Positions 9,778-42,299 of a stretch of 64,000 bases of DNA are shown here, in pieces. The translations under genes were made by a program, and so were the position numbers. Under the pieces are notes generated by a model. It had not been told where the DNA came from. It searched no databases and saw only the letters and a list, made by a program, of their open reading frames with translations. The DNA lies in sequence record PV660448. The stretch is one strand, 5' to 3'. The DNA comes from Escherichia phage LF82-4. Position 1 is the first letter of the stretch. Each line of letters starts with the position of its first letter.

Positions 9778-10099
9778 AATCTTCTATGATATCAGAGTCG
9801 TATCCTAATGAAATCAAGGACTTTTTAAACTCTGCAATATTCTTTTGTTTCTTATCATTTAAAAATATGACAGGATAACGAATATTAAGTGAAGTGAATC
9901 CTGCACGTTTAGCAAGAGATACGATTAAAGGACGGTCATATTCAATCTTACCATTATTAGTGAGGACTTTATAAAATGTATAAGGAGCATTGAGCTCCTT
10001 TAAAAGTTTTGTAACAGTATAACATCCTGGACAACGTCCAACTTCTTCAGGGATGCCATAAATTTCAATCTTGTTCTTTAAGTTCGAGTTTTGTTCCAC
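9776..10099 (-). CDS. glutaredoxin-like protein (NrdH-like)
   Basis: CPGC redox motif (GRCPGCYTVTKLL); upstream of nrdG/nrdD; in-frame ATGs lie deep inside the preceding ORF, so a GTG start at 10099 with AAGGAA RBS is proposed. Confidence 0.5.
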   Translation of the reverse strand: MEQNSNLKNKIEIYGIPEEVGRCPGCYTVTKLLKELNAPYTFYKVLTNNGKIEYDRPLIVSLAKRAGFTSLNIRYPVIFLNDKKQKNIAEFKKSLISLGYDSDIIED

Positions 10100-10382
10100 G
10101 AGAAATAATTCCTTGGTAAGCCCAATAAGGAGGATTAACCGAATCCTCACCCGAGTTTTCTTCAGGAAAATAAACCTGGATAACGAAGCCGGATTCATCA
10201 AATGTAAAATAAACTGTAGGCAGTTCACCTAACAATTCGGCACGAGCATTAATTTCTTCGAGGTCTTGTTCACGTCCAGCCCAAAAACTAGGATTTAGAT
10301 TACATTCGTAAAAATAATAGTCATTACCGAACATATCAAACCCCTTCCAACTCTCTACCACGTACCGCTCAAAACTAATCAT
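10065..10382 (-). CDS. hypothetical protein
   Basis: 105 aa ORF, acidic/aromatic. Confidence 0.45.
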   Translation of the reverse strand: MISFERYVVESWKGFDMFGNDYYFYECNLNPSFWAGREQDLEEINARAELLGELPTVYFTFDESGFVIQVYFPEENSGEDSVNPPYWAYQGIISRGTKLELKEQD

Positions 10383-10384
10383 AA

Positions 10385-10600
10385 TTAAGCCTTTTTATCA
10401 AGAACAGAATTCAGTTTGTTAGTAATTTTATCCAGACGCTCATTGAACTCATTAGAAGATAAGCCCTTTTCTGGAGAAATTAAACTAATCACGAAAAATA
10501 CACCAGTAAAAGGAATAAGAAAAATAGCTCCAACTGCCATAAACAGAAAGAATGTTACAGTTGTAAGAAAATCAGCTAAACCTTTACGAAATTTATACAT
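10385..10600 (-). CDS. hypothetical small membrane protein
   Basis: 71 aa, one long hydrophobic segment. Confidence 0.45.
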   Translation of the reverse strand: MYKFRKGLADFLTTVTFFLFMAVGAIFLIPFTGVFFVISLISPEKGLSSNEFNERLDKITNKLNSVLDKKA

Positions 10601-13501: not shown

Positions 13502-13927
13502 TTAACTTAAACGTCTTTCTAAATATTCAATGTATTCTGCGGCTGCTTGCATCAGGTTACCTTCATAGCCGTCGTTATTTTCTTGTCCAGCTAATTTAGC
13601 TAATGCATAAGAAATTCGTTCACCTTCGAATTCACCAAGTTTACTACCTAGCACATCAGCAATATCAGCCGAATCAATTTCTTCGAGTTCATCTATTGAA
13701 TGGGATTCCCAGAAGCACCAAAGAGAAGTATCACGGTCATAGATGCAAAGTTTCTCACCTGTGTTCAACATCACTTCGATAATGCCATGGTCGCCATAAC
13801 CATCTTCGGTAGTAGTACCAATTACCTTGAGGATTGTTCCTTTCTTTAATTCAGGAAACTTGACTTGTAGTTCTTCGTCTTCTTTAACAATCTTGAACCA
13901 TTTACCGCGAGTTTCAGAAATATTCAT
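13502..13927 (-). CDS. hypothetical protein (T4 pin position)
   Basis: ORF track 13502..14065, start moved to MNISETRGKWF (13927); position after gene 49 corresponds to T4 pin; assignment by synteny only. Confidence 0.4.
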   Translation of the reverse strand: MNISETRGKWFKIVKEDEELQVKFPELKKGTILKVIGTTTEDGYGDHGIIEVMLNTGEKLCIYDRDTSLWCFWESHSIDELEEIDSADIADVLGSKLGEFEGERISYALAKLAGQENNDGYEGNLMQAAAEYIEYLERRLS

Positions 13928-13928
13928 A

Positions 13929-14099
13929 TCAATATTCTCTATAAAAGTTACGATGAGAACGTTTAGCTTTGCGAAGCTGACGTTTAGTAGGACGAACTGT
14001 AAATAGTTGTCCAGAGAAAAAATTCGAATCGGTTTTAATAAGCAAATACCAATCATGCTTGCCATTTTTTAATAAACGGTACAATAATTTAACTTGCAT
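13929..14099 (-). CDS. hypothetical small basic protein
   Basis: ORF track 13929..14126; ATG 14099 with GGAAGAG RBS. Confidence 0.35.
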   Translation of the reverse strand: MQVKLLYRLLKNGKHDWYLLIKTDSNFFSGQLFTVRPTKRQLRKAKRSHRNFYREY

Positions 14100-15849: not shown

Positions 15850-16799
15850 TATAACACCTCAATGGCATTTCGTAAACCGTCCGCTTTCGCATTCAGAGCT
15901 TTTAACGATTTAGTCTGTTCTTTAATCTGGGCTTCGACTTCTTTCAGACGAGATTTGAGATATTCACGTTCTTCGCTCAAGTTGTCAACTTTTTCTACTT
16001 TAGGTTCTTTAATAGTCTTAAGTTTATACTCGTTAGGGTTCTTCAGCTTAATTCGGGTGCGAGAACTGTATAACATTGAACCGTTATCTTCGGATTCGTC
16101 GAACGTTTCAACAACATCCATAGTCTCTAACAATGTAATAAGTTTATAAGACAATGAACGAACGGTTTTGTTATGCTTATTAATTTCTTCAGCTTTCATG
16201 GTACCGAGATTACGTGAGTAGTAATAAGGAACCTGGATATCAATTGATAATGATGCGTTACCATTACCGGTCGGTTTGAATACTGCAGTAACCCAATCTT
16301 TAACATGAACTTTATTTGTACGACCATCACCGCCCGTGAATAATTTACGAGAATGTTTAAAAAGCATATTCACTTGGTTATTGAATTCACAAGCAAATTT
16401 ATCAGCGAATTTAGTTTCAGGAATGGTAGATAACCAATCAGCCAAATGAGTCTTTTTAACATCATTAATAATAGTGAATTCAACCAAATCAGTTTTAGAT
16501 GTCACAGATTTAATAAAGCTCGGTTTCATAAAGTTTTTAATGTTATCGCGAGCTACAGTAGAAGATAATAAACGAGAACGTTTGAACCATTGAAGCAGTG
16601 TCCCTAATGAATGAGAATACGCATTCTGAGTATCTTTACAGATATGATTTTCTTGACCTGTGTATGTACCAAAATCGCGAAGAATACCACTTACTACATC
16701 TCGGTGTGGAACATCAAATCCTAGTGCACCAACAGCGCGCTGGGCACGAACGTTAGCGATAAGACCGGCAAAGTATTCAATGTAATGTGAACGTGTCAT
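15849..16799 (-). CDS. hypothetical protein with C-terminal coiled coil
   Basis: 316 aa; own early-type promoter upstream; heptad-rich C-terminus. Confidence 0.55.
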   Translation of the reverse strand: MTRSHYIEYFAGLIANVRAQRAVGALGFDVPHRDVVSGILRDFGTYTGQENHICKDTQNAYSHSLGTLLQWFKRSRLLSSTVARDNIKNFMKPSFIKSVTSKTDLVEFTIINDVKKTHLADWLSTIPETKFADKFACEFNNQVNMLFKHSRKLFTGGDGRTNKVHVKDWVTAVFKPTGNGNASLSIDIQVPYYYSRNLGTMKAEEINKHNKTVRSLSYKLITLLETMDVVETFDESEDNGSMLYSSRTRIKLKNPNEYKLKTIKEPKVEKVDNLSEEREYLKSRLKEVEAQIKEQTKSLKALNAKADGLRNAIEVL

Positions 16800-16823
16800 A
16801 ATATTTTCCTCTCGTTAAGATAG

Positions 16824-16854
16824 ATTTATTATACTCCAACCATCCTTGGTTGTA
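16824..16854. repeat. 31-nt exact repeat, copy 1 (promoter cassette)
   Basis: ATTTATTATACTCCAACCATCCTTGGTTGTA identical at 16824..16854 and 17844..17874; partial third copy near 38663..38690. Confidence 0.9.
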
Positions 16855-16857
16855 AAC
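16828..16857 (-). promoter_or_regulatory. early sigma70-type promoter with spacer stem-loop
   Basis: Minus strand GTTTACA, 17-nt spacer containing CAACCA/TGGTTG inverted repeat, TATAAT. Confidence 0.55.
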
Positions 16858-16861
16858 CGTT

Positions 16862-17821
16862 TTATGATTTTAATGCATTCATTGCATTAAAAAGTTTAGA
16901 GTACTGCAACTGGAGATTCGTTACAACACTTTGAGCATCACGAAGCTTAGCTTGTGCTTTGTCAAGTTCAACGGACAGTTGGTCTGCAGTAGCCTTGATT
17001 TGGTTGTAATGATAATCTTCGGCCGGAAGAAGGTCATTAGAAACATTTAGTTTTACTGCCGACAGTTTGCACACATTTGGCAAACCTTTAAACATACCGG
17101 GTTGTGTCGGAGAATATGCGCTTAGAACCTCTGCATTACCGACTGGTGTTGCTGTAATATTGCCTTCAAACAATGCATTTTCCTTTTTAAGATTTTGATA
17201 GTATTCAGAGTCTTTGTGCCACCATGGCGCAGGAACCTTTTTACCAATAGATACACGAGCCTGGATAGCGATATGGCCCTTATTCTTGATAGGGTCGATA
17301 ATATTAAGCTCACGAGAATAAATTGCTTTAATTTGGTGAATATTATCACCTAACACTTCCAACGCTTGGTGGAATACACGAGCAACGTTATCGTTCTTAG
17401 GTTTATATGTAAGAGTGAACTCGTTCTCACTGATAACCATGATTTCTAACTTATCGTAAGTATATTTCAAATGTTTCATGTTAATTGCTTGAGGACGAAT
17501 ACGAGAAGCAATGGCCATCAGATTGTTAAGGTTATTTCGGAACTGTTTAGCGAAATATTGTCCTTCACCGCCGATACAAAAATTACGAAGTTTCTGTTTG
17601 GCTAATAAACGGCTGAACTCACCATTTTTAATGAACTCTTTAACGGGTGTGTTAGTAATGCATTCAAATTGAGTAAACATACGAGAATTAATCCCATAAT
17701 ATGAACAGATTTCCTCAATCTCTTCAGGAGTCTTTACAGGCATACGGATAGGATTAGGTCCTGGAGTATATGCGTTCGAGGTAAATTCTTTGATAAGTTC
17801 TCTACGTGTAATAAAAGCCAT
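16862..17821 (-). CDS. hypothetical protein with C-terminal coiled coil
   Basis: 319 aa; preceded by duplicated promoter cassette. Confidence 0.55.
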   Translation of the reverse strand: MAFITRRELIKEFTSNAYTPGPNPIRMPVKTPEEIEEICSYYGINSRMFTQFECITNTPVKEFIKNGEFSRLLAKQKLRNFCIGGEGQYFAKQFRNNLNNLMAIASRIRPQAINMKHLKYTYDKLEIMVISENEFTLTYKPKNDNVARVFHQALEVLGDNIHQIKAIYSRELNIIDPIKNKGHIAIQARVSIGKKVPAPWWHKDSEYYQNLKKENALFEGNITATPVGNAEVLSAYSPTQPGMFKGLPNVCKLSAVKLNVSNDLLPAEDYHYNQIKATADQLSVELDKAQAKLRDAQSVVTNLQLQYSKLFNAMNALKS

Positions 17822-30088: not shown

Positions 30089-30201
30089 TTAGTTTCTCTT
30101 TTAGGTTGGGCCATTCCGTGGCGCATGAATTGTCCATTTCTGTATTTACCCCTCTAAGTAATTATGAATATACTATCACAATTCTAGGAGAAAGTAAACT
30201 G

Positions 30202-30504
30202 TTATTTACCTTTAATTACTTTAGCTGCTTCGATAGCCGCTTGCTGAAGGTCATCCATAGACATACCGAATTTAGAAGCAAAGTTATCAATTTTCTTTTC
30301 GACAGCATTCAAAGGCTTGGCCTGTTTACCTTCATTAGCGCCAGGAAGAGCGAGAATACGCTCTTTGTCAATATAAAGGCTTACAAGTTTCTTACGGTCT
30401 TTATCGGACAAATCATGAAATGAATGGGCCTTTTTATTTATAGCGGCTTCTAATTTACCTGCACTCACTCGCGCTTCAGTAATAAATTCTTGATATGTTT
30501 TCAT
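30202..30504 (-). CDS. internal protein (capsid-targeting-sequence bearing)
   Basis: N-terminus MKTYQEFITEA matches the conserved capsid targeting sequence of T4 internal proteins IPI/IPII/IPIII. Confidence 0.65.
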   Translation of the reverse strand: MKTYQEFITEARVSAGKLEAAINKKAHSFHDLSDKDRKKLVSLYIDKERILALPGANEGKQAKPLNAVEKKIDNFASKFGMSMDDLQQAAIEAAKVIKGK

Positions 30505-30568
30505 TTTTTGTTTCCTTGTTTGTTTTGATAGAGTAATTATACCATATTAATACTTAAGCGTAAACAAT

Positions 30569-30829
30569 TTAAGCTTTACCGCCAGAAATAATTCCGAAGT
30601 TGTTAAAATCGTATCCAATATCGTCAACATCTACTTTAGGATTTACTACAACATAAGCAATTTCACTACGTTTTGCATAGGTGTTGATTTCTTTACCATC
30701 GCCACCTAAGAAAGAATACCCATTACGTTTTAATGAGCCAAAGTCTTCGGCATCACCAATGAAAGCTTTAACTTTAAATTTAGGACCTTTGGCATCTGCT
30801 TCAATGATAAATTCTTGATACATTTTCAT
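30569..30829 (-). CDS. internal protein (capsid-targeting-sequence bearing)
   Basis: N-terminus MKMYQEFIIEA. Confidence 0.65.
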   Translation of the reverse strand: MKMYQEFIIEADAKGPKFKVKAFIGDAEDFGSLKRNGYSFLGGDGKEINTYAKRSEIAYVVVNPKVDVDDIGYDFNNFGIISGGKA

Positions 30830-30835
30830 TTTTCC

Positions 30836-31249
30836 TTAGTAAATTGATTTACCATAGTATTTGTACCAAGTAGGACGTTGAGCAATTTTTTCATCTAAGC
30901 GTGCTTGACTTATCGCAACGGACGCTTCGGACGGGACATAATTATTACGAAATTCGGCAGGGATGTCGGAAATATCCTGGACTGTCGTGTCCTTGATTTT
31001 GAAACCACGTTTCAAGCATTCAGCGATTAGCTCGATTTGTCGTAAACGTAAAAATTCAAGTTTGTCGTAAAAGAATGTTACGTGACCTGTGCCTAAGATA
31101 AATGTTGGAGAGATTTTAAAATCCTTTACACGTTTACCGTTTTGGACATGTTTACGGACTGCACTAAATACGCGTGGTAATTCACGATACTCAGCCATAA
31201 GATGTTGATCGGTCAGTTCAGAAACAAGTGTTAAATTGATACGAGTCAT
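30836..31249 (-). CDS. denV: endonuclease V (pyrimidine dimer DNA glycosylase) DenV
   Basis: Start [28 protein letters not shown]; near-identical to T4 DenV from memory, 137 aa. Confidence 0.95.
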
Positions 31250-31307
31250 AATTTCCTCCAAGTAGTTGATGAATGTATAGTATCAAAACCCTTGGAGGAA
31301 GTAAACA

Positions 31308-31589
31308 CTATTTTTCTGAAGCGCCTGAAATATATTTTTCAAGACGTTGTTTCATCAGCGAGCCGTTCTTAGCGATTTCTTCCGGTTTATCGCACATACG
31401 TAACAAGGCTTCAAGCTTAGCGATATCGCTGGTACGTTCAAATTTGCGAGTATCTATCTTACTAGCAAGTTCAGAAATACGTGCTAATAGACTTTCGGCT
31501 TCAACCAAAGCTGCACCTAGCTTAGTTGCAAATGTGTCAGTAGCTTCGTTAAGAATAGATTCTGATAAAAATTCACTATATGTTTTCAT
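31308..31589 (-). CDS. internal protein-like (capsid-targeting-sequence bearing)
   Basis: Start at [11 protein letters not shown] (ATG 31589). Confidence 0.6.
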
Positions 31590-32074
31590 ATATACGCTTT
31601 CCAAGTTCCTGTTTTAAATGTTGAGATTACGCGTTTCGCGCGATTAGGTGTCTGACGATACCATTTAGATTGGGCGAGATTTACTGCCGCTTCATCCCAA
31701 CGTTTCTGTTGAAGCATACGAAGAGAATTAGTAAAACCAGCAACGCCTGCTACACCCATTTGGAAGACCATATTGACCAATGCACATCGACGAACCGCGT
31801 CTAAAGAATCATATACCGGTTTAAGTTTAGCATTACCCAAGATTCCGCGAACGGCTTTATCGACGTCTTCGTTAAATAGCTTTTCAGCCTCATCAAGGGT
31901 AATTGTACCGTTGCATTTACGACCGATCATTCTGTCAAGTTCAGCTTTAGCTACGGCTAAAGACGGGTTCTTTGTTACTAAATGGCCTATGCCAATCGTC
32001 CAAAAGCCTTCAGTGTCTTTGTATAAAGTCAGTCTAAGACCTTCGTCATTACGAAGCATTTCAAATATATTCAT
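31586..32074 (-). CDS. e: endolysin (T4 lysozyme family)
   Basis: [28 protein letters not shown]; catalytic E11, D20, T26 context conserved; C-terminus differs from T4 lysozyme. Confidence 0.95.
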
Positions 32075-32108
32075 AATACCTCCCACGTTTATAGGAGGTA
32101 TTTATTAC

Positions 32109-32567
32109 TTATAGGATGGTAGTGAGCACCTTGTATAACGATTTGCCCATTACATATTCCCATTGAGAAGGTTTAATTAAAGCGAATGCATCAAATTCAG
32201 GAATCTGTCGTCCGTCTGGGAATGTATGATAGGAATTACAAACACTGTTTCTGAATTGCTCATGCTCTACAGGGATGGTATATAGGAACAGATGAATATT
32301 CTTATTGTCTGAGTAATGATGTTCACCTAGGTCTTTCAGGAAGGCAGGGTCATATTGTGTAAACCCAGTTTCTTCTTCGCATTCACGAATAGCGGCTTCA
32401 ATAGGAGATTCGCCAGGTTCGACACGGCCTTTAGGAATATCCCACCGATGAGCTAATGCACCTTTAGGACGAGAACCAGTTACACGACCCATGAATAATT
32501 CTTTATTTTCGGTAAGGAAAATAATACCGGCAGATAGTTCTTTCACTTTATTTTTCTTACTCATCAT
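32109..32567 (-). CDS. nudE: Nudix hydrolase NudE
   Basis: Nudix box GRVEPGESPIEAAIRECEEETGF; directly after lysozyme gene as T4 e.1. Confidence 0.85.
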   Translation of the reverse strand: MMSKKNKVKELSAGIIFLTENKELFMGRVTGSRPKGALAHRWDIPKGRVEPGESPIEAAIRECEEETGFTQYDPAFLKDLGEHHYSDNKNIHLFLYTIPVEHEQFRNSVCNSYHTFPDGRQIPEFDAFALIKPSQWEYVMGKSLYKVLTTIL

Positions 32568-32793
32568 CTCGGTCCCATGATTTGGCCATTAATTCAGACA
32601 TAAATTCTTCAATGCGCGTTTCTTTAGATGGACTTTCACTATTAGAGACCGCAAGTTTGTAATCTGCAATAGGACGGAACAAATCAAGGTCCATATTAAG
32701 ATCGTCTTTGATTTGTTCTTCAGATACGTCTTTATCATACGTATACAAATAACTATCACCCGATTCTGATTTAACGTAAATTGCTATGCTCAT
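32557..32793 (-). CDS. hypothetical protein
   Basis: 78 aa acidic ORF. Confidence 0.4.
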   Translation of the reverse strand: MSIAIYVKSESGDSYLYTYDKDVSEEQIKDDLNMDLDLFRPIADYKLAVSNSESPSKETRIEEFMSELMAKSWDRDDE

Positions 32794-33188
32794 CTCAAAT
32801 TCCTACATTCGGTAATAAAACGTTCAACTTCATTATTCTTGGCCTTTATCTTGTCTTTACGTTCCTGTAAACTACTTTTAACAAGATTAATAATGATGCC
32901 TATAGTACCTCCACCAATAATACCACCAATAATACTTACGATAGTAGATGCTAATAATATAGCGATAATATCTGGTATGGCAAAGGCACTTACTTTAGTA
33001 CTAAAAAACCATACCGACGGTACAAATATAATCCATCCTGTTATCCATTGGCACTTATTGAAAAACTTTTCAAGCTCAGCTTGAGTTGTTCTTATTACTT
33101 CATCGATAGGTTGATATCCATTAATGTATCTGTTCACGATAATACCTGCTGGCTGGTCGATTTTAAATTCTTGACAAATACGTTTCAC
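32790..33188 (-). CDS. hypothetical membrane protein
   Basis: 132 aa; central glycine/isoleucine-rich hydrophobic stretch. Confidence 0.45.
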   Translation of the reverse strand: MKRICQEFKIDQPAGIIVNRYINGYQPIDEVIRTTQAELEKFFNKCQWITGWIIFVPSVWFFSTKVSAFAIPDIIAILLASTIVSIIGGIIGGGTIGIIINLVKSSLQERKDKIKAKNNEVERFITECRNLR

Positions 33189-33269
33189 TAAGTAGGATGG
33201 ACATCCTGTCCAATCTACTGAATAGTACGAAATACCTTCATTACTTAGACCAATATGTTTTGTTAATCA

Positions 33270-33956
33270 TTACCAGCCTTCCATAGGGAATTCCAGATAA
33301 ACTTGAGCATTGACACGAATTTCATTGGTAATCTTTTTAACTCGGTCTGTATTACGAGATACACGTCCGAACCAACGCCATCCATTACTAATTGCACGAG
33401 AACCAGTGTGCCATGTTTGCCAATCAAACTGAAGAAGAGTACGGTCCGGAGCTTCCCATTTCTCTAGTTCACCTTTTTCAATTTTTTCGAGGACTTCTTT
33501 GTGCCATTGGCGATAGATAAGTTCGCCATCAGGAATCTGACTGAACTCTGCAGTTCCTGTTGCAAAATGAGTAGGACACACGTCAGCGTTAACAAGACCA
33601 AGAATATGTTCAGAATGGTAACGAGGGTTATCATAGTCAGGTTGTCCTGCAGTAATAAAGTGTTGGCCGACTGGAATATCAGGGCGAGGAACATCGTCAT
33701 GGTGATATCCAGGAATAGCAGGATACCAACCAGGCATCAGCATATGAACCCGAGAATCAAATACAACATGTTGATTAGTCCAATCAATTGGGAGATTGGC
33801 AATAAAGCTACGAGTAATAGGACCGCCGTTATCCCAAGCAAAACTCAAATCACAGTTAAAGAACATTGGTTCATTTTTGATTTGGTCATTTTGTACGTTA
33901 TGAGCAAAACCACCTACTGCGCGAGCTTGACTATTAAACACTTTAGAACTATTCAT
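33270..33956 (-). CDS. hypothetical protein (His/Asp-rich, possible metal-dependent enzyme)
   Basis: 228 aa; HHDD and later His residues plus R-x-S near C-terminus could form a 2-His-1-carboxylate site; speculative. Confidence 0.45.
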   Translation of the reverse strand: MNSSKVFNSQARAVGGFAHNVQNDQIKNEPMFFNCDLSFAWDNGGPITRSFIANLPIDWTNQHVVFDSRVHMLMPGWYPAIPGYHHDDVPRPDIPVGQHFITAGQPDYDNPRYHSEHILGLVNADVCPTHFATGTAEFSQIPDGELIYRQWHKEVLEKIEKGELEKWEAPDRTLLQFDWQTWHTGSRAISNGWRWFGRVSRNTDRVKKITNEIRVNAQVYLEFPMEGW

Positions 33957-33957
33957 A

Positions 33958-34263
33958 TTATTTTCCTCGACATTCTTTAATGAAATTTTCTAGATTGGTA
34001 GATTCAATAGCTTTTTTACGAGCTTCTGCATGTTCTTCTTCAGACAATTTACATTTATAATTAACCCAGACGTTATGGTCAAAACTAGTCGTGGCATATA
34101 ATAACAATGCTCCAACGAATAGCAAAAACGGCGATAAGAATACAAAACCAGGAACACCATCCATATCGTAAGCCTTTTGTAATACTGCAACAGAAAGGGC
34201 TGCGTAAAAAGGTGATGCAAATATTGTTAAAAGACCAATTCGGTTGGTTTCGCCTAATTTCAT
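33958..34263 (-). CDS. hypothetical membrane protein
   Basis: 101 aa, two hydrophobic helices; own early promoter upstream. Confidence 0.45.
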   Translation of the reverse strand: MKLGETNRIGLLTIFASPFYAALSVAVLQKAYDMDGVPGFVFLSPFLLFVGALLLYATTSFDHNVWVNYKCKLSEEEHAEARKKAIESTNLENFIKECRGK

Positions 34264-34292
34264 AATATTCTCCTCATGTTTTTAATAGGACT

Positions 34293-34322
34293 ACTATAAC
34301 ATAGTCCTATAATTGTGTAAAC
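34293..34322 (-). promoter_or_regulatory. early sigma70-type promoter with flanking inverted repeat
   Basis: Minus strand GTTTAC -18- TATAGT; arms ATAGGACT/AGTCCTAT around the -10. Confidence 0.5.
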
Positions 34323-34334
34323 AGTTTTGTGAAG

Positions 34335-35291
34335 TTATTTGAAAGGTTTTACCATATGGAAATTTTGTTTGAAACGTTTGACGTAATCATTTTTGCCGAG
34401 CTTATGATACATAGCCACTACTTCATAATAGTTCTCGTATGCGTACTCACGGAACCATCCGGAGGTGATGCTTGTACAGACTTTTTCCAATGCCATCATA
34501 AAACTGGCTTCAGGGTTAATTTTAAAGTTATTAGGAATCTGAGAACGTTCTAATGCTAATACACATGATTCTTCGTATACACCGGCCAATTTGACCATTT
34601 CTGGTAATGATTCGAACTTCTCGCGTGAGGTCATGACTTCAGAACCATCTTTCATATAAAATGTATACGCTGGACGGTCTGTTAGTGCAATGGCTTCATG
34701 AATAGTATCATGGTCATATGTATAGATGTCATCTTTAAAGAACGCACTTTTAGAAGTGTCAAGAACCGGGTGAGCATAGTTCAAAGTTTCTTTCTGGCGT
34801 TTCAACATAATTTCAGTAAGTTCATCGTTCAGTGTAACACCTTTACCACGAAGATACTGAATATGGTTCATAGTCTTTAAAAAGAATGGATTATTTTTCT
34901 TGAAACGATGAGACATCTTAATTGCAAGACATATCTCAGGAGTTGCCCAGTAAAACCCAGTCAAACGGTCTTTAGTCAAATTTTTCTTGGCGTATTTTAA
35001 AAGGTCATAAGAAGATGTGAAATCTTCAGGAGTGAGTTCACCGACTAATTCACGGACATTAGTGATTGCCGGAACAATATATGCTTCAAAATGAGTTTCA
35101 CGTCCATTATGGAAGCATTTGAAAACTTGGACATCAGGGTTATCTTGGTGAACATATACACCCATCATTTGATTTTTGAATACATTCCAAGAACCTTGGT
35201 CCGCAATAAAGTCCCAATCACTATTTTTGATAGCGCTAGAATCAATAAGGCCATGGTAGTGAAGTGCACGAGAACCAATAACTAACATCAT
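34335..35291 (-). CDS. hypothetical protein
   Basis: 318 aa; N-terminal IGSRALHYHG...SDWDFIAD weakly resembles a nucleotidyltransferase GS...DxD motif. Confidence 0.5.
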   Translation of the reverse strand: MMLVIGSRALHYHGLIDSSAIKNSDWDFIADQGSWNVFKNQMMGVYVHQDNPDVQVFKCFHNGRETHFEAYIVPAITNVRELVGELTPEDFTSSYDLLKYAKKNLTKDRLTGFYWATPEICLAIKMSHRFKKNNPFFLKTMNHIQYLRGKGVTLNDELTEIMLKRQKETLNYAHPVLDTSKSAFFKDDIYTYDHDTIHEAIALTDRPAYTFYMKDGSEVMTSREKFESLPEMVKLAGVYEESCVLALERSQIPNNFKINPEASFMMALEKVCTSITSGWFREYAYENYYEVVAMYHKLGKNDYVKRFKQNFHMVKPFK

Positions 35292-35316
35292 AATATTTTC
35301 CTCGAATTTAGATTAC

Positions 35317-35556
35317 TTAAATTTCGCGACATGCGATATTATATTCATCCCAGAGGTCGTCATGTGAAGCCTCTACCAATGGAACGATTGTACCATTTAT
35401 ATCTTCATTATAAGGGCAAATTGTACAGTGCGCATCTTCGAATCGGATGCCTTTGTGTTCAGATTTTTTATAACGCATATCGAATATCTTTGCAAACTTT
35501 TCACGAGTAATAGTTTTAGCAACTACTTCGGTTCCTATACTTTCGTAATAAACCAT
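35317..35556 (-). CDS. hypothetical cysteine-containing protein
   Basis: ORF track 35317..35568; ATG 35556 with GGAG RBS. Confidence 0.4.
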   Translation of the reverse strand: MVYYESIGTEVVAKTITREKFAKIFDMRYKKSEHKGIRFEDAHCTICPYNEDINGTIVPLVEASHDDLWDEYNIACREI

Positions 35557-35618
35557 TGTTGTCTCCATTTAATTTGATAGGACTACTATAACATAGCCCT
35601 ATCTTGTTGTAAACTGTT

Positions 35619-35816
35619 TTAGCAAGAATAACTAGATGATACCCAGCCTTGAACAGTGATACTATTGTGGGATAATGAGATCGCGTCCTGGAGATTCAGA
35701 CCTGCATTATCTTCAATCCACAATGTAACTTCTTCACGCTCTTCGGTTGCAATCTGGAACAGGTTTTCTAGAGCAGCTACGGCCGTACGTACAGCACAAT
35801 CTAATTCACGAGACAT
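35619..35816 (-). CDS. small protein, paralog family member 3 (C-terminal WVSSSYSC)
   Basis: 65 aa; shares C-terminal motif with two upstream ORFs. Confidence 0.45.
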   Translation of the reverse strand: MSRELDCAVRTAVAALENLFQIATEEREEVTLWIEDNAGLNLQDAISLSHNSITVQGWVSSSYSC

Positions 35817-35825
35817 ATGATTTCC

Positions 35826-36098
35826 TTAACAAGTGTGAGAAGATGCAACCCAACCACCAGTTTCGAGGCTCAGGTTGTAGTCGTATTGGTAAACGTCAGC
35901 CCATTCGGCATAACCGTTTTTTGTACAACGTTCAAGATCGGCTTTAAGATGTCCGGGTGAATGATAGGTTCCACCCATACCATAAGCTGGGTACAAGTTG
36001 AATGTTGTGTTTTGTTTATCAGCAATTTCTTTGGCAGCCTCAATAGCTGCATAGATTTTTGCTACAGCTTCAGCCAGTTCGGTTTGTTCTTTAGACAT
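35826..36098 (-). CDS. small protein, paralog family member 2 (C-terminal GGWVASSHTC)
   Basis: 90 aa; starts MSKEQ; shares architecture with 36108..36413. Confidence 0.5.
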   Translation of the reverse strand: MSKEQTELAEAVAKIYAAIEAAKEIADKQNTTFNLYPAYGMGGTYHSPGHLKADLERCTKNGYAEWADVYQYDYNLSLETGGWVASSHTC

Positions 36099-36107
36099 AA
36101 TGATTCC

Positions 36108-36413
36108 TTAGCACAACGCAGAAGATGAAACCCAAGCACCTTCAGTAATAACGTATCCATTACCTTCACGCTTAACATCGCCGCCATTATTTTCAATTTC
36201 ATCTTTCATCCACTGGGATACGATTTCACCCTTAGGATAATAAGTACGACCGCTACCATAATCACCTACAGAAAATGATACGGCATATTGGTCTGCGATC
36301 TTTGTTGCTTCTTCTTCGATACGTTCAGCTTGATTCAGAAGTTTATAAATTGCATCTGAAGCGGATTTGGCATCATTAAACTCTGGTACTTTAATTTCAA
36401 TAATCTTACTCAT
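36108..36413 (-). CDS. small protein, paralog family member 1 (C-terminal GAWVSSSALC)
   Basis: 101 aa; starts MSKII; early-type promoter just upstream. Confidence 0.5.
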   Translation of the reverse strand: MSKIIEIKVPEFNDAKSASDAIYKLLNQAERIEEEATKIADQYAVSFSVGDYGSGRTYYPKGEIVSQWMKDEIENNGGDVKREGNGYVITEGAWVSSSALC

Positions 36414-36511
36414 TTTCTACATTCCTTAATAAAGTTTTCGATTGTTTCATTTTCACGTTTAGCTAGGAGTTCATTATAACTAATCATTTGAGAAGCGTAA
36501 ACAGCATAAAT

Positions 36512-36934
36512 TCAGTTAAGGCTTTTGCATCTTATTTCCTTAACGAATTCCATAGCTTCTTCATATTCATACTTTTTAACAGCTTCATCATACTGAGCTT
36601 GGGCTTTTGCGCACTGAACTTTCCATTCTCTTAATCGGGCTCTGTGATGACGGCCTTGGTACCAATATCCCATCCAGTTAATAGGCATTAATAAAAATGG
36701 TACAATAAGTGGTGCGACGAACATTAATGAAAATGCTGCATCAGACGATATAACTTCACTAGAATCTAAAACGGCTCCTATAATCATAAAGATTAAAAAT
36801 GCTAAAGCTAAAATAGGGCCAAATAGTACTTCATTTGGGATTAATTTACGCTTGTATTCATACGCCCAGGGCTTACTTGGCATGTACAGGGTTGGCTTTG
36901 ACATATTCTCTACATTCCATAATAAATTGCTCAA
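36512..36934 (-). CDS. hypothetical membrane protein
   Basis: 140 aa, two or three transmembrane helices followed by charged tail. Confidence 0.45.
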   Translation of the reverse strand: MSNLLWNVENMSKPTLYMPSKPWAYEYKRKLIPNEVLFGPILALAFLIFMIIGAVLDSSEVISSDAAFSLMFVAPLIVPFLLMPINWMGYWYQGRHHRARLREWKVQCAKAQAQYDEAVKKYEYEEAMEFVKEIRCKSLN

Positions 36935-37475
36935 GGATTAAATTGTTAGTGAAATTAGGACTAACAACCATAGTTTCATAAAGCGCATCAATAGCACTTA
37001 AAGCATCAACTCTCTTAAGCAAAGGCTTGCCTTCATACATAGTTTCAGAATCGACGATTAACGTAAAGTAGTATTTTTTATTATCGACTAGAACTTCTGT
37101 ATCGATATAAAACATATTAGACCTCAGAAGCTTATCTCTAAAACCATAATAATCTTCAGAGCGTTCGCTGATATATTCCCATTCAGTGTTTAAACAACAA
37201 ACAGACCACGTAGGAGCAACGAAATCAGTGAATCTAATATCATAGTCTGCAACTAGTTTAGCAATAGCTCCGATATCATGAATCATAATACCTGGGGCTA
37301 ATAAAGATTTTCTGCTATGGCTAGCCGTTTTCTCAGTGGTTTCATAAGAAGACGACCAATACCATTTACGTCCGGTTGCAACATATCGTAATGAATCAAC
37401 TAAAGACGTAGGTGGATTTACCTTATCTCGGAACTCTTCGAACATTGAGTCAATATCATTATTTTGGTTTCGCAT
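36873..37475 (-). CDS. hypothetical protein
   Basis: ORF track 36873..37496; ATG 37475 with AAAGGAG RBS. Confidence 0.5.
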   Translation of the reverse strand: MRNQNNDIDSMFEEFRDKVNPPTSLVDSLRYVATGRKWYWSSSYETTEKTASHSRKSLLAPGIMIHDIGAIAKLVADYDIRFTDFVAPTWSVCCLNTEWEYISERSEDYYGFRDKLLRSNMFYIDTEVLVDNKKYYFTLIVDSETMYEGKPLLKRVDALSAIDALYETMVVSPNFTNNLILEQFIMECREYVKANPVHAK

Positions 37476-37524
37476 GTTAACTCCTTTATTATCCAAAAGG
37501 AGGACCGGAGTCCTCCGTATTATT

Positions 37525-38118
37525 TTATTTCAAAGAGTTAATATATTCTTGTACATCAGCAGAAGTGGTTTCGACACCGGCTGGAGTGCCATTGAACGTT
37601 TCAACACGAGTCAGAGTGTCTTCGATATCAACCTTAGTCAGTGCAGCGATTTCAATCACATCATCAGCCGTAGAGATACCAAGGGCATTGGCTGCTCGAG
37701 TTTCACGAATGTATTCGAGTTTGATTGCCAGGTTCTGACGAGCATCATCAAGTTCAACCACCTTACGAGCAATTTCAATTCGCATAGCGGCATACCCATC
37801 AGCTTTTGTATTAAGTTGTTCGGCAGTTCGACGATACAGAAGACCAAGCTTAGCATGCATGGTAACATCTTGTCCTTCAGCCAGGAGCTTACGAATTTCA
37901 CGTTCCTTAGAAGCGGCTTGCTTGTTCTTTTCATTAACAAGTTCGCGAATACGTTTTTCTTCATTAATAGATTTAACAGAAGCCGTTTTTAGTTCTTTGA
38001 TTTGGGTAATCAACTTATCTGCAGCTGCGTTATACTGTTCTTCGACAGTCAGATTTTTAGCCATAGCAGTACCCAGTTTAGTGCGGATGAATTCAACAAG
38101 TTTCTTCAGTGTGTTCAT
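37525..38118 (-). CDS. hypothetical coiled-coil protein (PspA-like composition)
   Basis: ORF track 37525..38133; ATG 38118; long heptad-repeat helices; driven by the duplicated 45-nt promoter cassette. Confidence 0.5.
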
Positions 38119-38142
38119 ATTATTACCTTTCAATTGGTGGTT

Positions 38143-38187
38143 TATTATCCAACGAGAGCATTATACTCTGCTCTCAAGAGTTTGTAA
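38143..38187. repeat. 45-nt exact repeat, copy 2 (promoter cassette)
   Basis: Identical to 8200..8244. Confidence 0.9.
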
Positions 38188-38191
38188 ATTA
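38162..38191 (-). promoter_or_regulatory. early-type promoter inside duplicated 45-nt cassette (copy 2)
   Basis: Minus strand ATTTACA -17- TATAAT; identical core to copy at 8200..8244. Confidence 0.5.
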
Positions 38192-38416
38192 TTTTTTAAT
38201 CAAATTGACATAAAACTTGGCATCTTCGGGGTGCATGCCTTCGCAGTATTCTTCAACCATGAACTTCTTAACAGCTTCATAAGGACCACTCAGATTAAGC
38301 TCAGTTGTCCAGAACTTGGAATCTTGTACTGAATCGATACGAACTTCAGGGTGACGGTTGCGAATAACTTCTTCTGTGTATTCATAATCAACGACATCAA
38401 TACTAACTTTAGCCAT
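38189..38416 (-). CDS. hypothetical protein
   Basis: 75 aa acidic ORF. Confidence 0.4.
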   Translation of the reverse strand: MAKVSIDVVDYEYTEEVIRNRHPEVRIDSVQDSKFWTTELNLSGPYEAVKKFMVEEYCEGMHPEDAKFYVNLIKK

Positions 38417-38645
38417 TTTGTTTTCCTCTTGATTTGATGTGATTACTATAACATAAACTTACTTAGATGTAAACTATTTCAACATCACCTTTAGCTGCTT
38501 TATAACCTTCGGCCCAAGATACAACAGAGTTTTTATCTGAGGATTCAAATTCAGGCATTGGACTTTCACCAATATTCACACAGTATGTTTCTTCATTTTC
38601 ATCGAACCAAATAATTAAAGTAGTCATTTTGTTTACTCCACTGTA

Positions 38646-38666
38646 GTTGATAAGTCTATAGTATCA
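38646..38666. repeat. 21-nt repeat, copy 1
   Basis: GTTGATAAGTCTATAGTATCA identical at 38646..38666 and 39018..39038, both in promoter regions. Confidence 0.85.
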
Positions 38667-38695
38667 CCATCCTTGGTGCTTGTACATCATTATTT

Positions 38696-39001
38696 TTAAT
38701 TTTTCCAACTTAACAACTTGTAGTGTCCTTCATTCGTACGAGGTTTATCCCAATAGATATTAATAAACGATGTCTCACCAATAGAAGTCGGCGGTTTTTT
38801 CTCTACAGTAAGACCTTCGCTTTCTAACCACTCAATGACTTTTGTAGATAAAGCTAAAGAAACATGTAATGGACAACGACAGTATTTTTCACCTTTAGCT
38901 GAAGACTCGTACATCATTTCTAAAATACGTTTTTGCACTTTTTTAAAAATAGTTTCAGCAGATTCTTCAGATTTTTTATTCAGTTCAGTGTAAAGACTCA
39001 T
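38696..39001 (-). CDS. hypothetical protein
   Basis: 101 aa; CRCP motif; GGAG RBS. Confidence 0.45.
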   Translation of the reverse strand: MSLYTELNKKSEESAETIFKKVQKRILEMMYESSAKGEKYCRCPLHVSLALSTKVIEWLESEGLTVEKKPPTSIGETSFINIYWDKPRTNEGHYKLLSWKN

Positions 39002-39017
39002 AATATTCTCCTCTGCG

Positions 39018-39038
39018 GTTGATAAGTCTATAGTATCA
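39018..39038. repeat. 21-nt repeat, copy 2
   Basis: Identical to 38646..38666. Confidence 0.85.
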
Positions 39039-39087
39039 TGTCCTTAGAAGAAGTAAACAACTTTTTAAACTTTTTCTGCCCTAGATA

Positions 39088-39117
39088 CCAAAAAGCCCCA
39101 ACCTTTCGGAAGGGGCT
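39088..39117 (-). terminator. intrinsic terminator (repeated 24-nt hairpin, copy 3)
   Basis: Identical 24-nt hairpin at 3-prime end of tRNA-like RNA region, U tract follows. Confidence 0.6.
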
Positions 39118-39119
39118 AA

Positions 39120-39430
39120 GCCTTGCGGCAACCTTGTCGGGGTTTCCACCTACTAGGTAAGTGTTTGTACGAAACGCCGGGATTCGAACCCGGTTATTAA
39201 GCAGTTGACGCTACTCAATATTTTTAAAAGGCCATATCTCGACCATATCCGAACGTTCCGTCAAAAACGCTACTCGGCTTACGGCAAAGATATTTCCTCG
39301 AATCGATAATTCTGTGCGCCGTTTCTGCTGTGATGTAAGGGGATATTAACGAATCATAAAGATTTATTAAGACCAGTCCTTACTCAGGGAACATCAGTCC
39401 GACGACTTACCGGTAGCGACCCGGCTTCTT
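39120..39430 (-). ncRNA. non-coding, tRNA-like RNA region (possible remnant tRNA or T4 species-1/2-type stable RNA)
   Basis: About 310 nt with no ORF; minus strand contains canonical T-arm CCGGGTTCGAATCCCGG followed by CGTTTCG that pairs with upstream CGGAACG, but the intervening 58 nt do not fold into a standard D/anticodon arm; followed by a hairpin terminator. Confidence 0.3.
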
Positions 39431-39773
39431 ATTTTGGCATATCATCAATTTGCTCTCGACGCCGACGCCATAGATTAATCGCTTCATAAACACATTCAGC
39501 ATTTGGTATATGGCGACAATAGTATAGTGATTCGCGTTTCTGGAACCGATGTTGCAATGGGATTTCGTTTAAAAGGTCTTTACGGTCAAAGTATTCAAAA
39601 CTAGTTAACCCGGAACGGTTTTTAAGAAACTTCCAATGGCCAAATTCATTTTGGAAATAAACGTAATCAGCGTGTTGATATAATGAATTAATCAACCGGT
39701 CGGAAATAACTGTATCCTGTTCGTTAAAATAAAACGTTAAATCATGAACTACCAGATAAATATTGCCTTTCAT
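39429..39773 (-). CDS. hypothetical protein
   Basis: 114 aa ORF between segB-like gene and RNA region. Confidence 0.45.
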   Translation of the reverse strand: MKGNIYLVVHDLTFYFNEQDTVISDRLINSLYQHADYVYFQNEFGHWKFLKNRSGLTSFEYFDRKDLLNEIPLQHRFQKRESLYYCRHIPNAECVYEAINLWRRRREQIDDMPK

Positions 39774-39780
39774 ATTTTCC

Positions 39781-40449
39781 TCACTTAAATTTTAGTTTAT
39801 AGCCTTTAATCCAACCTTCCGGAATAGGATCGGTTTTCTTAATTTTCTTAGATTTCTTTTCTTCTAATGAATGAATCCACATAGTACCAAACTGGGAATT
39901 TTTCTCGCCTTGTTGGTGTTTGTTCCTGGCGTGGGTATCTTTCATTTTAGCAATAGTTTCGGAAGTATGATTTTTATTTAAAAACGACTTAGTGCTAGAG
40001 AATTTTTCTCTGTATTCAGGTAAAGTCCACAGATGCTTTAATTTCTCTGAACCCATTTTACGATATTTTTCTTGAAGCACTTCATCAGAATCAAATCTCT
40101 CTTTAAAAGCTTTGGCTCCTTTAATAGAGGCTTCTTTCTTTTTATAATTAAATTCGTAAGTATTTAAATGGTCCCAACCACCTTCGCCACCAAGTTTTAA
40201 ATTATATACGTCAGAACGATTCAAAAATTCTTCGTTTACGATATTTTTCTCGGCTTCAAACATCTGCTCTTTAGTGTCAAAGAATTCTAAAATTTCTTTA
40301 TTAAAATTTTCTATACCATACTTGTCTTGGGCTCTTTTTAATAATTTACCAGAACCCATATATCCATCATCTAAATTTTCGGTAGAATGAGCGCCTATAT
40401 AGATTTTATTATTAATTTTATTTGTTATTTTATAAGTGTAATGGAACAT
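39781..40449 (-). CDS. segB: GIY-YIG homing endonuclease (SegB-like)
   Basis: N-terminus HYTYKITNKINNKIYIGAHS is a canonical GIY-YIG motif; 222 aa; sits between tRNA genes as T4 segB does. Confidence 0.75.
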   Translation of the reverse strand: MFHYTYKITNKINNKIYIGAHSTENLDDGYMGSGKLLKRAQDKYGIENFNKEILEFFDTKEQMFEAEKNIVNEEFLNRSDVYNLKLGGEGGWDHLNTYEFNYKKKEASIKGAKAFKERFDSDEVLQEKYRKMGSEKLKHLWTLPEYREKFSSTKSFLNKNHTSETIAKMKDTHARNKHQQGEKNSQFGTMWIHSLEEKKSKKIKKTDPIPEGWIKGYKLKFK

Positions 40450-40490
40450 AAATATCTCCTATTTCTAAGAGTATTTATGTTCCCAAAATA

Positions 40491-40562
40491 TGGCCCTGGC
40501 TGGTTTCGATCCAGCTACCTATCAGTTATGAGCTGACAGCTCTCCCATTGAGCTACAGGGCC
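40491..40562 (-). tRNA. tRNA with CAU anticodon (elongator Met or lysidine-modified Ile)
   Basis: Minus strand 72 nt folds as a cloverleaf: acceptor GGCCCTG/CAGGGCC, D stem GCTC/GAGC, anticodon stem GTCAG/CTGAT with loop CTCATAA, T stem GCTGG/CCAGC with loop ATCGAAA, discriminator A; no encoded CCA. Confidence 0.85.
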
Positions 40563-40656
40563 TTAATAACTTTCTATTATGAAAGGCACTTTAGAGCACC
40601 TTTGGTAATAGAGGGTAGATTAATAATAACACATAATTCTTAAAGCAAATTACGTT

Positions 40657-40947
40657 TTACCATACCATATTAATGTAATTATACTCAATACATTCAAGAT
40701 TTAAAGGATTCTTGAAAATATCATATTCAAGAGGACCTTTTTCTGTTTCAATAAAGAAATCAAAGTTCACACTATTAAATTTGCGGTCTTCCCAAAGTAA
40801 TTTAACCTGTGAAGATGAACGGTCGACGTAAACCTTTTCAACTTCAAAGTGGGTCAAAATACCATAGTAATCGACTAGTGCTTTAGCTGCACGTTGATCG
40901 CTTTCATATCCATTCTCAACGGATTTTACCTTAGCATAAAGAATCAT
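40657..40947 (-). CDS. hypothetical protein
   Basis: 96 aa ORF. Confidence 0.45.
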   Translation of the reverse strand: MILYAKVKSVENGYESDQRAAKALVDYYGILTHFEVEKVYVDRSSSQVKLLWEDRKFNSVNFDFFIETEKGPLEYDIFKNPLNLECIEYNYINMVW

Positions 40948-41324
40948 GAATGTTCCACCACTTCAAAGGTGTGAGCATCAACAATATGATACCAGTCAAA
41001 ATTTTCTTCTGCGTTTTTATAAATTTCGCGAAGAGCCTCAACAGTTTTTCCTGTAGCAACAAGGTCGTCAATACCACCAAGAGGATAACAGTCATAACCA
41101 GCAAACAGAAGGAAATTAATAGTTTCTGTAGGTTCTGGATGCAAAACACCATTATCATCTACCACTTCAAAGAAAGTGTAAGAAGGAGTACAAGTTTTAA
41201 TCCAAGCCCATGCTTGAGCTGCTGAATCAAATGGTCTGCGTATCAAACGACAATCAGGGTCTTTAGAAGGATTTGCTTCAAAATCCGCATATACGTGATA
41301 TTTCATTTTACTCACCTTTTGCAA
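40944..41324 (-). CDS. hypothetical protein
   Basis: 126 aa acidic ORF. Confidence 0.45.
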   Translation of the reverse strand: MQKVSKMKYHVYADFEANPSKDPDCRLIRRPFDSAAQAWAWIKTCTPSYTFFEVVDDNGVLHPEPTETINFLLFAGYDCYPLGGIDDLVATGKTVEALREIYKNAEENFDWYHIVDAHTFEVVEHS

Positions 41325-41493
41325 TTTTATCCATAACGATAGCGATTAAGCCGATTAGAAATGCTACTACCAATGAGATAGAATTTTCTGTTGTTGTCAG
41401 TAGTCCACAAATGAATCCTACAAACATCGAAAAACTAAAAGCCATTGAAGCAATTACTACAGCAACATTACGAATCAGTTCAGCGCGTTTCAT
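41308..41493 (-). CDS. hypothetical small membrane protein
   Basis: 61 aa with two hydrophobic helices. Confidence 0.4.
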   Translation of the reverse strand: MKRAELIRNVAVVIASMAFSFSMFVGFICGLLTTTENSISLVVAFLIGLIAIVMDKIAKGE

Positions 41494-41562
41494 TTTATTC
41501 TCCTCAGTAGTTGATAGGGTAATAGTATCACTACCCTATCTAAAAGTAAACGGTTTTATAAA

Positions 41563-41871
41563 CTATTTTATTCCGCGTGATGCAATCGTATTCTGCCGTT
41601 TAACACCAGTTTGTTTAAAGTCATGACTGTCGATTTGATCGGTGCGAGCAACTCCGAATGATGATTTAATCTTAGCTTTAGATCCTTTAGTTATAGAAAT
41701 AAACATCTCGGAAGACCCTTTCTTAAAGTCTGATGCAGATACTTCAACACCGTTCTTAGCAAGTGACCTCAGAATTGCATCCGCGTACTCATCATCAAGA
41801 CTCGCTTGAGTATTAATAACAAATGTCTTTGGTGCAGCCGCTTCATTGATAAATTCTTTATAGGTTTTCAT
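41563..41871 (-). CDS. internal protein-like (capsid-targeting-sequence bearing)
   Basis: N-terminus MKTYKEFINEA; own early promoter-stem-loop upstream. Confidence 0.6.
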   Translation of the reverse strand: MKTYKEFINEAAAPKTFVINTQASLDDEYADAILRSLAKNGVEVSASDFKKGSSEMFISITKGSKAKIKSSFGVARTDQIDSHDFKQTGVKRQNTIASRGIK

Positions 41872-41901
41872 TTTATTTTCCTAATTAATTTTGATAGGAC
41901 T

Positions 41902-41931
41902 ACTATAACATAGTCCTATTAGCATGTAAAC
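41902..41931 (-). promoter_or_regulatory. early sigma70-type promoter with flanking inverted repeat
   Basis: Minus strand GTTTAC -18- TATAGT with TG extended -10; arms ATAGGACT/AGTCCTAT. Confidence 0.5.
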
Positions 41932-41934
41932 TAC

Positions 41935-42222
41935 TTACAGAAGGGTTTTTGCAATAATTTTAAGCTGAGCTACAGAAATATGCTTAGCTTTAAACAGTGC
42001 AGTCTCTTCAGCCGGAGAGATAACAATAGTAGCGCCATCTTTCTTAGCAGACCATCCATCCCCTAAGTAAACAGTACCTTTTACTTCTTCGCCATCAACC
42101 AGACTAATCATTGGTTTACCCTCACGTCCTTTATTTGCTTTAATAACTTCGGAAGTAAGGGTCGCTTCGGTCAGAGTAGAAACGTTAGCATCAGGTGATA
42201 TAAATTCTTTATAGGTTTTCAT
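41935..42222 (-). CDS. internal protein-like (capsid-targeting-sequence bearing, IPI position)
   Basis: N-terminus MKTYKEFISPD...LTEA; 95 aa; located just upstream of 57B/57A as ipI is in T4. Confidence 0.6.
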   Translation of the reverse strand: MKTYKEFISPDANVSTLTEATLTSEVIKANKGREGKPMISLVDGEEVKGTVYLGDGWSAKKDGATIVISPAEETALFKAKHISVAQLKIIAKTLL

Positions 42223-42299
42223 TTTATTTCCTTGAGGTTGTTTATTTTATAGGATGATAGTAACACACCATCATCCTTATGTAAACTGTTTTGTGAAAA

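Follow-up and report, generated by a model that had tools for sequence, protein, structure and literature searches.

Five T4-type internal protein genes in the RB69-like Escherichia phage LF82-4

A family of internal protein genes at two classical loci

Escherichia phage LF82-4 carries, in the 64,000-nucleotide stretch analysed here (sequence record PV660448; hereafter the window), five open reading frames (ORFs) that are genuine members of the T4-type internal protein (Ip) gene family, a family that is already known and annotated. The window is 97% identical to Shigella phage Shf125875 across 94% of its length, and Shf125875 belongs to the genus Mosigvirus, i.e. the RB69-like relatives of T4. 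In our reading, to which we assign a probability of about 0.88, the five are the Ip genes of an RB69-like Mosigvirus: their products would be packaged into the head, cut by the gp21 prohead protease, injected into the host and active against restriction, and the genes would behave as exchangeable cassettes. Publications already cover the family, the targeting signal, the polymorphism and the role against restriction, and no new kind of system is involved.

All five ORFs are present where the original prediction had placed them, on the minus strand and with 86-102 codons: 30202-30504 (ipII), 30569-30829 (RB69 ORF125c type), 31308-31589 (Ip5-like), 41563-41871 (ip7) and 41935-42222 (ipI). A ribosome-binding site of the AGGA type lies 6-9 nt upstream of each. 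In one description, Ips form a varied group of anti-restriction proteins with the capsid-targeting sequence (CTS) as their sole common part (PMC3012670). Within the CTS, targeting depends on residues 4 and 7 and processing on residues 8 and 10, and the first ten residues of IPIII (MKTYQEFIAE) are enough for packaging (PMC9026906). The pattern MK[TM]Y.EF[IL] is seen five times in the six-frame translation of the window against 0.00015 expected from residue frequencies, a shorter DNA pattern (ATGAARACNTAY) occurs four times against 0.32 expected, and a relaxed CTS pattern, scanned in six frames over all 64 kb, recovers the five ORFs only. The N-termini include MKTYQEFITE (first nucleotide 30504), MKMYQEFIIE (30829), MKTYKEFINE (41871) and MKTYKEFISP (42222). 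The common start MKTY(Q/K/S)EF(I/L)xE that had been predicted is literal in three of the five; the ORF at 30569-30829 has Met at position 3, and that at 41935-42222 lacks Glu10. M1, K2, Y4, E6 and F7 are kept in all five, and with them the published targeting determinants, an aromatic residue at position 4 and Phe at position 7 (PMC9026906).

The position of the genes agrees with this assignment. Two classical Ip loci are occupied, with three genes around denV/e and two between 57B and trna.4, a placement matched by synteny with T4, RB69, Shf125875, RB15 and T2. The genes flanking the ip ORFs have 96-100% protein identity to RB69 and only 56-89% to T4. In RefSeq record NC_025437 the orthologs of all five are labelled 'internal head protein' or 'internal virion protein', the exact protein sequences of all five are already deposited in public databases, and the proteins are 90-100% conserved across hundreds of phage genomes (217-496 records each).

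The set had been called an expanded family. T4 indeed has three such genes within the T4 region that we examined, and five is more than that, yet the number is ordinary among the kin of LF82-4: the homologous region of RB69 holds seven CTS ORFs (123c, 124c, 125c, 127c, 149c, ipI and 156), there are six in Shf125875, and the ipI locus of RB15 by itself contains four ip genes. The sixth CTS ORF of Shf125875 (154 aa, MKSYAEFLTE; 10063-10527 of locus L001) has no counterpart in the window, and neither have ORF123c, ORF124c, ORF149c and the Ip7-like ORF156 of RB69 (3450-3779, 3848-4120, 13551-13991 and 16784-17110 of locus L006). Several of these extra ORFs of Shf125875 and RB69 are still annotated as hypothetical. 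An IPIII ortholog was not found in the window: against T4 IPIII, with its mature part of 183 residues, the CTS alone aligns, and none of the five bodies matches phrog_5341 (IPIII). T4 IPIII (Ip3), an inhibitor of the two-gene GmrSD of ECOR17, thus has its CTS in common with the window Ips but not its body.

The bodies behind the CTS had been held to be unrelated to each other. This stands in direct comparison, where BLASTP of residues 11 to the end gives no pair with E < 0.1, but not entirely in profile searches, where the ORFs at 30569 and 41563 share phrog_2667 even after removal of the CTS (E 1e-12 and 8e-34, respectively). Comparison of the ORF125c and Ip7 bodies by hhalign, with CTS-trimmed and shallow family alignments (Neff about 1.6), returned a probability of 0.1%, and in phrog_2667 the CTS may have joined a mixture of proteins into one cluster. 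For the three proteins other than IPI and IPII (Ip7, Ip5-like and the ORF125c type, hereafter the orphan Ips), BLASTP similarity of the window bodies to IPI, IPII and IPIII is absent. A Pfam scan of the five proteins gave IPI_T4 as the sole significant match, and sequence searches of the PDB matched IPI only (2JUB). Matches to DUF7412 at the N-termini fell below threshold and were discarded.

The five proteins

The gene at 41935-42222 encodes a protein of 95 aa and is the ipI ortholog. Pfam family PF11634 (IPI_T4) matches residues 20-95 with model positions 1-76 (E 1.4e-50; 169.6 bits, cutoff 25), and PDB entry 2JUB, the 76-aa IPI*, aligns exactly to the same residues (E 6e-42). The propeptide comprises residues 1-19 (MKTYKEFISPDANVSTLTE, nt 42166-42222), and the mature IPI* of 76 aa begins with ATLTSE. 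Identity to T4 IPI is 88% overall with four differences in the mature part, and the mature protein is identical to RB69 IPI*. T4 IPI has equal length, lies at the same 57B-trna.4 locus and likewise has a 19-residue propeptide that ends in (I/L)TE before ATLTSE; it differs in propeptide sequence (MKTFKEFTSTTTPVSTITE in T4) and in that it sits in a phage with glucosylated DNA, whereas the phage of the window IPI has arabinosylated DNA. IPI* inhibits the GmrS/GmrD type IV restriction enzyme of CT596 (PMC12373910), and RB69 IPI protects against GmrSD (PMC6024577). A divergent body of unknown target, as had been proposed, is therefore not what this gene encodes: it is the ortholog of T4 IPI, whose target is the CT596 GmrSD.

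The same holds for the gene at 30202-30504 (100 aa, CTS MKTYQEFITE↓A, the arrow marking the cut), the ipII ortholog. Its product is 93% identical to T4 IPII over 100/100 residues (E 2e-66), with 96% nucleotide identity over the full length, and matches phrog_7857 (E 4.5e-55); for the T4 protein, Ip2, the GmrSD of strain ECOR21 is the known target. The CTS has the same length in both phages, and the neighbours differ, ORF125c and vs.8 in the window and ipIII and denV in T4. Orthology of the bodies to T4 IPII/IPIII in a database comparison had been named as speaking against the original prediction, and the comparison does show orthology to T4 Ips for two genes, IPI and IPII. The claim of unknown targets survives for Ip7, the Ip5-like protein and the ORF125c type, each of which belongs to a named or annotated family.

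The gene at 41563-41871 is ip7 (102 aa, CTS MKTYKEFINE↓A). Its 92-residue body is 94.6% identical to RB15 Ip7 (CAA84464; E 4e-63) and 92% to the T2 homologue, the full protein matches phrog_2667 'internal head protein' (E 4e-42), and its counterpart carries the name Ip7 in KM407600. The RB15 proteins Ip5, Ip7, Ip8 and Ip9 (record Z35082) are reportedly those of Repoila, Tetart, Bouet and Krisch 1994, EMBO J 13:4181. AlphaFold2 models Ip7 (pLDDT 68) with a beta-alpha-beta-beta-alpha core of generic ferredoxin/ACT-like type. Weak DARPin-like PDB matches of residues 33-65 (E 0.001, no stretch passing alone) were treated as chance. The last residues of Ip7 (83-102; nt 41563-41622, FKQTGVKRQNTIASRGIK) form a basic tail that is nearly invariant in the family and predicted to be disordered (pLDDT about 40); it could be the functional contact region.

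The Ip5-like gene at 31308-31589 (93 aa) is of the RB69 ORF127c type. With the CTS excluded, its body is 47% identical to RB15 Ip5 (CAA84462) over 74 residues (E 5e-19), and phrog_3499 'internal head protein', which also covers RB15 Ip5, matches the protein with E 2e-46; 'internal head protein' is likewise its RefSeq label. Ip5 of RB15 and T2 lies at the ipI locus, whereas the window homologue lies at the denV/e locus. Its N-terminus offers two candidate cleavage sites, LSE↓S (residue 10) and LNE↓A (residue 15). The Ip5-like ATG overlaps the stop codon of the lysozyme gene e (ATGA, 31586-31589), which suggests translational coupling of the two genes. In RB69 the corresponding ORF127c shows a -1/+1 compensated frameshift over CTS codons 5-12 (MKTYMNFYQNLSLNE; L006 5160-5204 against window 31530-31589), with MKTY and LNE↓ATDTF nevertheless retained. 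Either the CTS of RB69 has truly degenerated or the record contains an old sequencing error.

The ORF125c-type gene at 30569-30829 (86 aa, CTS MKMYQEFIIE↓A) starts 6 nt after denV, and its product is 96.5% identical to RB69 ORF125c. RefSeq again labels it 'internal head protein'. Relatives begin with MKTY instead of the MKMY of the window copy, and the family is narrow: in a set of 5.8 billion proteins it forms 12 clusters, every one of them from T4-like phages. The 90%-identity clusters of ORF125c and Ip7 also hold their neighbours DenV and Trna.4, respectively, which looks like a clustering artefact and makes the cluster sizes of ORF125c and Ip7 unreliable.

Probable packaging, injection and targets

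Judged from homology with T4, the CTS, through Tyr4 and Phe7, would take each Ip into the scaffolding core of the prohead, where gp21 would cut after the Glu of an (I/L)-x-Glu motif followed by Ala. The cut would fall after residue 10 in IPII, ORF125c and Ip7, after residue 19 in IPI, and after residue 10 and/or 15 in the Ip5-like protein. Propeptides of known Ips have 10-19 residues (PMC9026906). In four of the five proteins the motif (I/L)xE followed by Ala occurs exactly once and at the expected place, namely as ITE↓A, IIE↓A or INE↓A at residues 8-10 and, as in T4 IPI, as LTE↓A at residues 17-19 of IPI; the Ip5-like protein has two sites near the N-terminus, LSE↓S and LNE↓A. The mature Ips, of roughly 8-10 kDa, would remain in the head with the DNA and enter the host with it. 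For T4-type Ips about 1000 molecules are contained in the head together with the DNA (PMC3012670), and Ips and DNA are injected together (PMC12373910). The genes for gp21 and for the core proteins gp22, gp67 and gp68 lie outside the 64 kb window and are encoded by the 97%-identical Shf125875. As products of CTS-bearing Ip genes the five proteins are likely packaged, processed and injected, and the original prediction of likely injected proteins is well founded on the sequence.

An anti-defence role, which had also been proposed, is the accepted view of the family (PMC3012670; PMC12373910). For Ip1, Ip2 and Ip3 of T4, inhibition of three different GmrSDs has been shown, one per protein (Silas et al. 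2025, PMC12373910), and the systems of ECOR21 and ECOR17, targets of Ip2 and Ip3, are highly diverged, with no cross-protection between the two inhibitors (PMC12373910). The DNA of Mosigvirus carries arabinosylated cytosine and is still cut by the GmrSD-family enzyme BrxU (PMC13390438). The window IPI* would block a GmrSD type IV enzyme, as has been shown for the identical mature protein of RB69, and IPII most likely blocks a GmrSD of the BrxU/ECOR21 type, like the T4 protein to which it is 93% identical. The three orphan Ips would, most likely, inhibit other nucleases that attack modified phage DNA.

Several points weigh against this reading. No virion proteome or N-terminal sequencing of LF82-4, and no virion proteome of any Mosigvirus, was found in the literature, and packaging and cleavage are read from the protein sequences. 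Mature ORF125c and the mature Ip5-like protein have a pI close to neutral (6.3-8.1), in contrast to the classical Ips, which are basic. Structure models give no functional clue: Foldseek of the Ip7 model against the PDB returned only generic ACT/ferredoxin-like matches, none of them significant (E >= 0.006), and against BFVD only Ip7 itself, and the AlphaFold2 model of ORF125c, built from a 5-sequence alignment, is unusable (pLDDT 39). Finally, ip4-10 gave no reproducible inhibition in assays against 15 GmrSD groups (PMC12373910). Apparent interactions, including that of ip7 with CLS_011, failed to reproduce (PMC12373910), and with Ip7 lacking reproducible GmrSD inhibition a GmrSD target is no more than tentative for the three orphans.

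This last result lends itself to another explanation, namely that the orphan Ips are injected and act on targets other than GmrSD, such as other defences, host takeover or enzymes acting on arabinosyl-cytosine DNA. Besides the negative assays, two observations speak for it: the phages in those assays were T-even, with glucosylated DNA and not the arabinosyl-cytosine of Mosigvirus DNA, and the orphan bodies lack similarity to IPI, IPII and IPIII. On the other hand, every Ip with a known target acts on a GmrSD enzyme, and the GmrSD family is very diverse, so that the assays covered only a sample of it. We regard non-GmrSD targets as rather unlikely, while giving them more weight than the two explanations that follow.

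It is also conceivable that Ip7, the Ip5-like protein and ORF125c are mainly structural and fill the head, neutralise DNA charge or assist assembly. T4 IPIII mutants show slower head assembly and a smaller burst (PMC9026906), lysines of internal proteins touch DNA phosphates (PMC3012670), and mature IPII, Ip7 and IPI are basic (pI 9.0-9.7). However, T4 Ips are dispensable on laboratory hosts, all three now have defence targets, and two of the three orphans are not basic. Moreover, the ip gene set varies among close relatives and its cassettes have been swapped between genera, which fits the cargo of an arms race rather than structural parts. A mainly structural role is consequently improbable. 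That some of the five are decaying remnants that merely retain recombination-prone CTS codons is hardly credible: the compensated frameshift of RB69 ORF127c and truncated family members in databases would fit such decay, but all five window ORFs are intact, have ribosome-binding sites and show the high conservation given above.

Anti-restriction proteins that are loaded into the head are not confined to the T4 type. Phage P1 packages DarA, DarB and Hdf into its head and injects them, and they act on type I restriction systems. The P1 Dar proteins follow the same logic as T4-type Ips in being head-loaded restriction blockers that are delivered together with the DNA; they differ in their unrelated sequences and in their type I targets. 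With this strategy Ips deliver ready-made anti-defence proteins that act before phage gene expression, and each new pair of Ip and target reveals a bacterial restriction enzyme together with its inhibitor. The value of the window is confirmatory in this respect: it presents a Mosigvirus with three orphan Ips beside IPI and IPII, for whose counterparts the GmrSD targets are known.

Cassettes, neighbours and the wider repertoire

The ipII and ip7 genes are much nearer to Tequatrovirus DNA than the genes around them, a discrepancy which suggests that ip genes move as cassettes. The nucleotide identity of ipII to T4 reaches 96%, compared with 64-80% for the flanking genes (window 30160-30565 against T4 L003 5340-5860); this high identity sets in with the start codon of the CTS and extends as far as the GTTTAC box of the following early promoter. 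In RB69, which lacks ipII, other CTS genes (ORF123c/124c) occupy that position. Together, the jump in identity and the different genes of RB69 point to a recent cassette exchange between Tequatrovirus and this lineage of Mosigvirus. Early-type minus-strand promoters lie upstream of ipII (GTTTAC-N18-TATAAT, 30526-30565) and directly 3' of it (30160-30199), where the identity to T4 ends at the GTTTAC. In the ip7 cassette, the DNA of the gene, of the 5' leader and of the promoter/stem-loop that follows closely matches that of the Tequatrovirus phages RB15 and T2 (window 41480-41960), at 90% mean column identity over an aligned region that includes diverged outer flanks. Judged from these identities, ipII and ip7 have recently been exchanged with Tequatrovirus phages as cassettes.

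Sequences resembling the promoter/stem-loop (PeSL) elements of T4-type phages, whose promoter consensus and role in modular shuffling have been described (Comeau et al. 2014, PMC4122927), lie where the cassettes of high identity end. In the window these are GTTTAC-N18-TAnnnT promoters overlapped by inverted repeats of 6-9 bp (8-9 bp around ipI and ip7). On the minus strand they have the G of GTTTAC at 42286, 41931, 41551, 35614 and 34322, and the copies at 41931 and 34322 are near-identical. The early-type promoter upstream of ipI (42247-42286) reads GTTTAC-N18-TACTAT with the arms AGGATGAT and ATCATCCT, and the element between ipI and ip7 (41892-41931) reads GTTTAC-N18-TATAGT with the arms ATAGGACTA and TAGTCCTAT; a third, 3' of ip7 and 5' of trna.4 (41512-41551), is conserved with RB15 and T2. 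As in T4-type PeSL cassettes (Arbiol et al. 2010, PMC2839356; PMC4122927), AGGA...TCCT-type repeats flank the window ip genes; the ipII exchange differs in that its 5' breakpoint of identity is the CTS start codon itself and not a PeSL. The ip genes would thus behave as exchangeable cassettes bounded by CTS codons and PeSL elements, in agreement with the published Ip polymorphism and with nothing new in kind. A search around the ip genes for MotA boxes and late promoters gave one TATAAATA inside ipII and none upstream of the genes. Of the five, ipI, ip7 and ipII have their own promoters; the Ip5-like gene and ORF125c do not.

Two further features of the region between the Ip loci were observed. 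A gene for a GIY-YIG (Seg-like) homing endonuclease at 39781-40449 stands beside tRNA-Met (40491-40562), the sole tRNA found in the window; at the same place Shf125875 and RB69 have tRNA-Arg, tRNA-Met and ORF151c, and the endonuclease is absent. Three tandem small ORFs on the minus strand (35619-35816, 35826-36098 and 36108-36413), of the types of RB69 ORF136c-139c, may form a local family of paralogs, as they share the C-terminal motif G(G)WV(S/A)SS..C.

Beyond the window, a scan of IMG/VR for CTS codons gave at least 120 loci with at least 180 CTS ORFs, whose bodies fall into at least about 68 unrelated families. Among the loci listed, a named reference is present in 13 of the about 68 body families, and the bodies match 48 PHROGs, about 9 of which are annotated as internal proteins. 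Glu10 occurs in 86% and Ala/Ser11 in 64% of the CTS ORFs listed; both positions were left unconstrained by the search, and their conservation argues for a real processing site. A pI above 9 is found in 73% of the bodies listed, and the genes beside the metagenomic CTS loci that were sampled are T4-like. The largest unannotated family comprises very Lys/Arg-rich proteins of about 160-240 aa (e.g. L126 5294-5782) and matches phrog_12788.

It is a reasonable, if somewhat less than even, prospect that the CTS marks a mostly unannotated cargo repertoire that reaches far beyond the Ips named so far, roughly ten to twelve in number. In that case candidate injected anti-defence effectors could be listed across the T4 superfamily by a simple sequence rule, and Ip7, the Ip5-like protein and ORF125c of the window may act beyond the GmrSDs that have been assayed, e.g. 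on enzymes that attack arabinosylated DNA.

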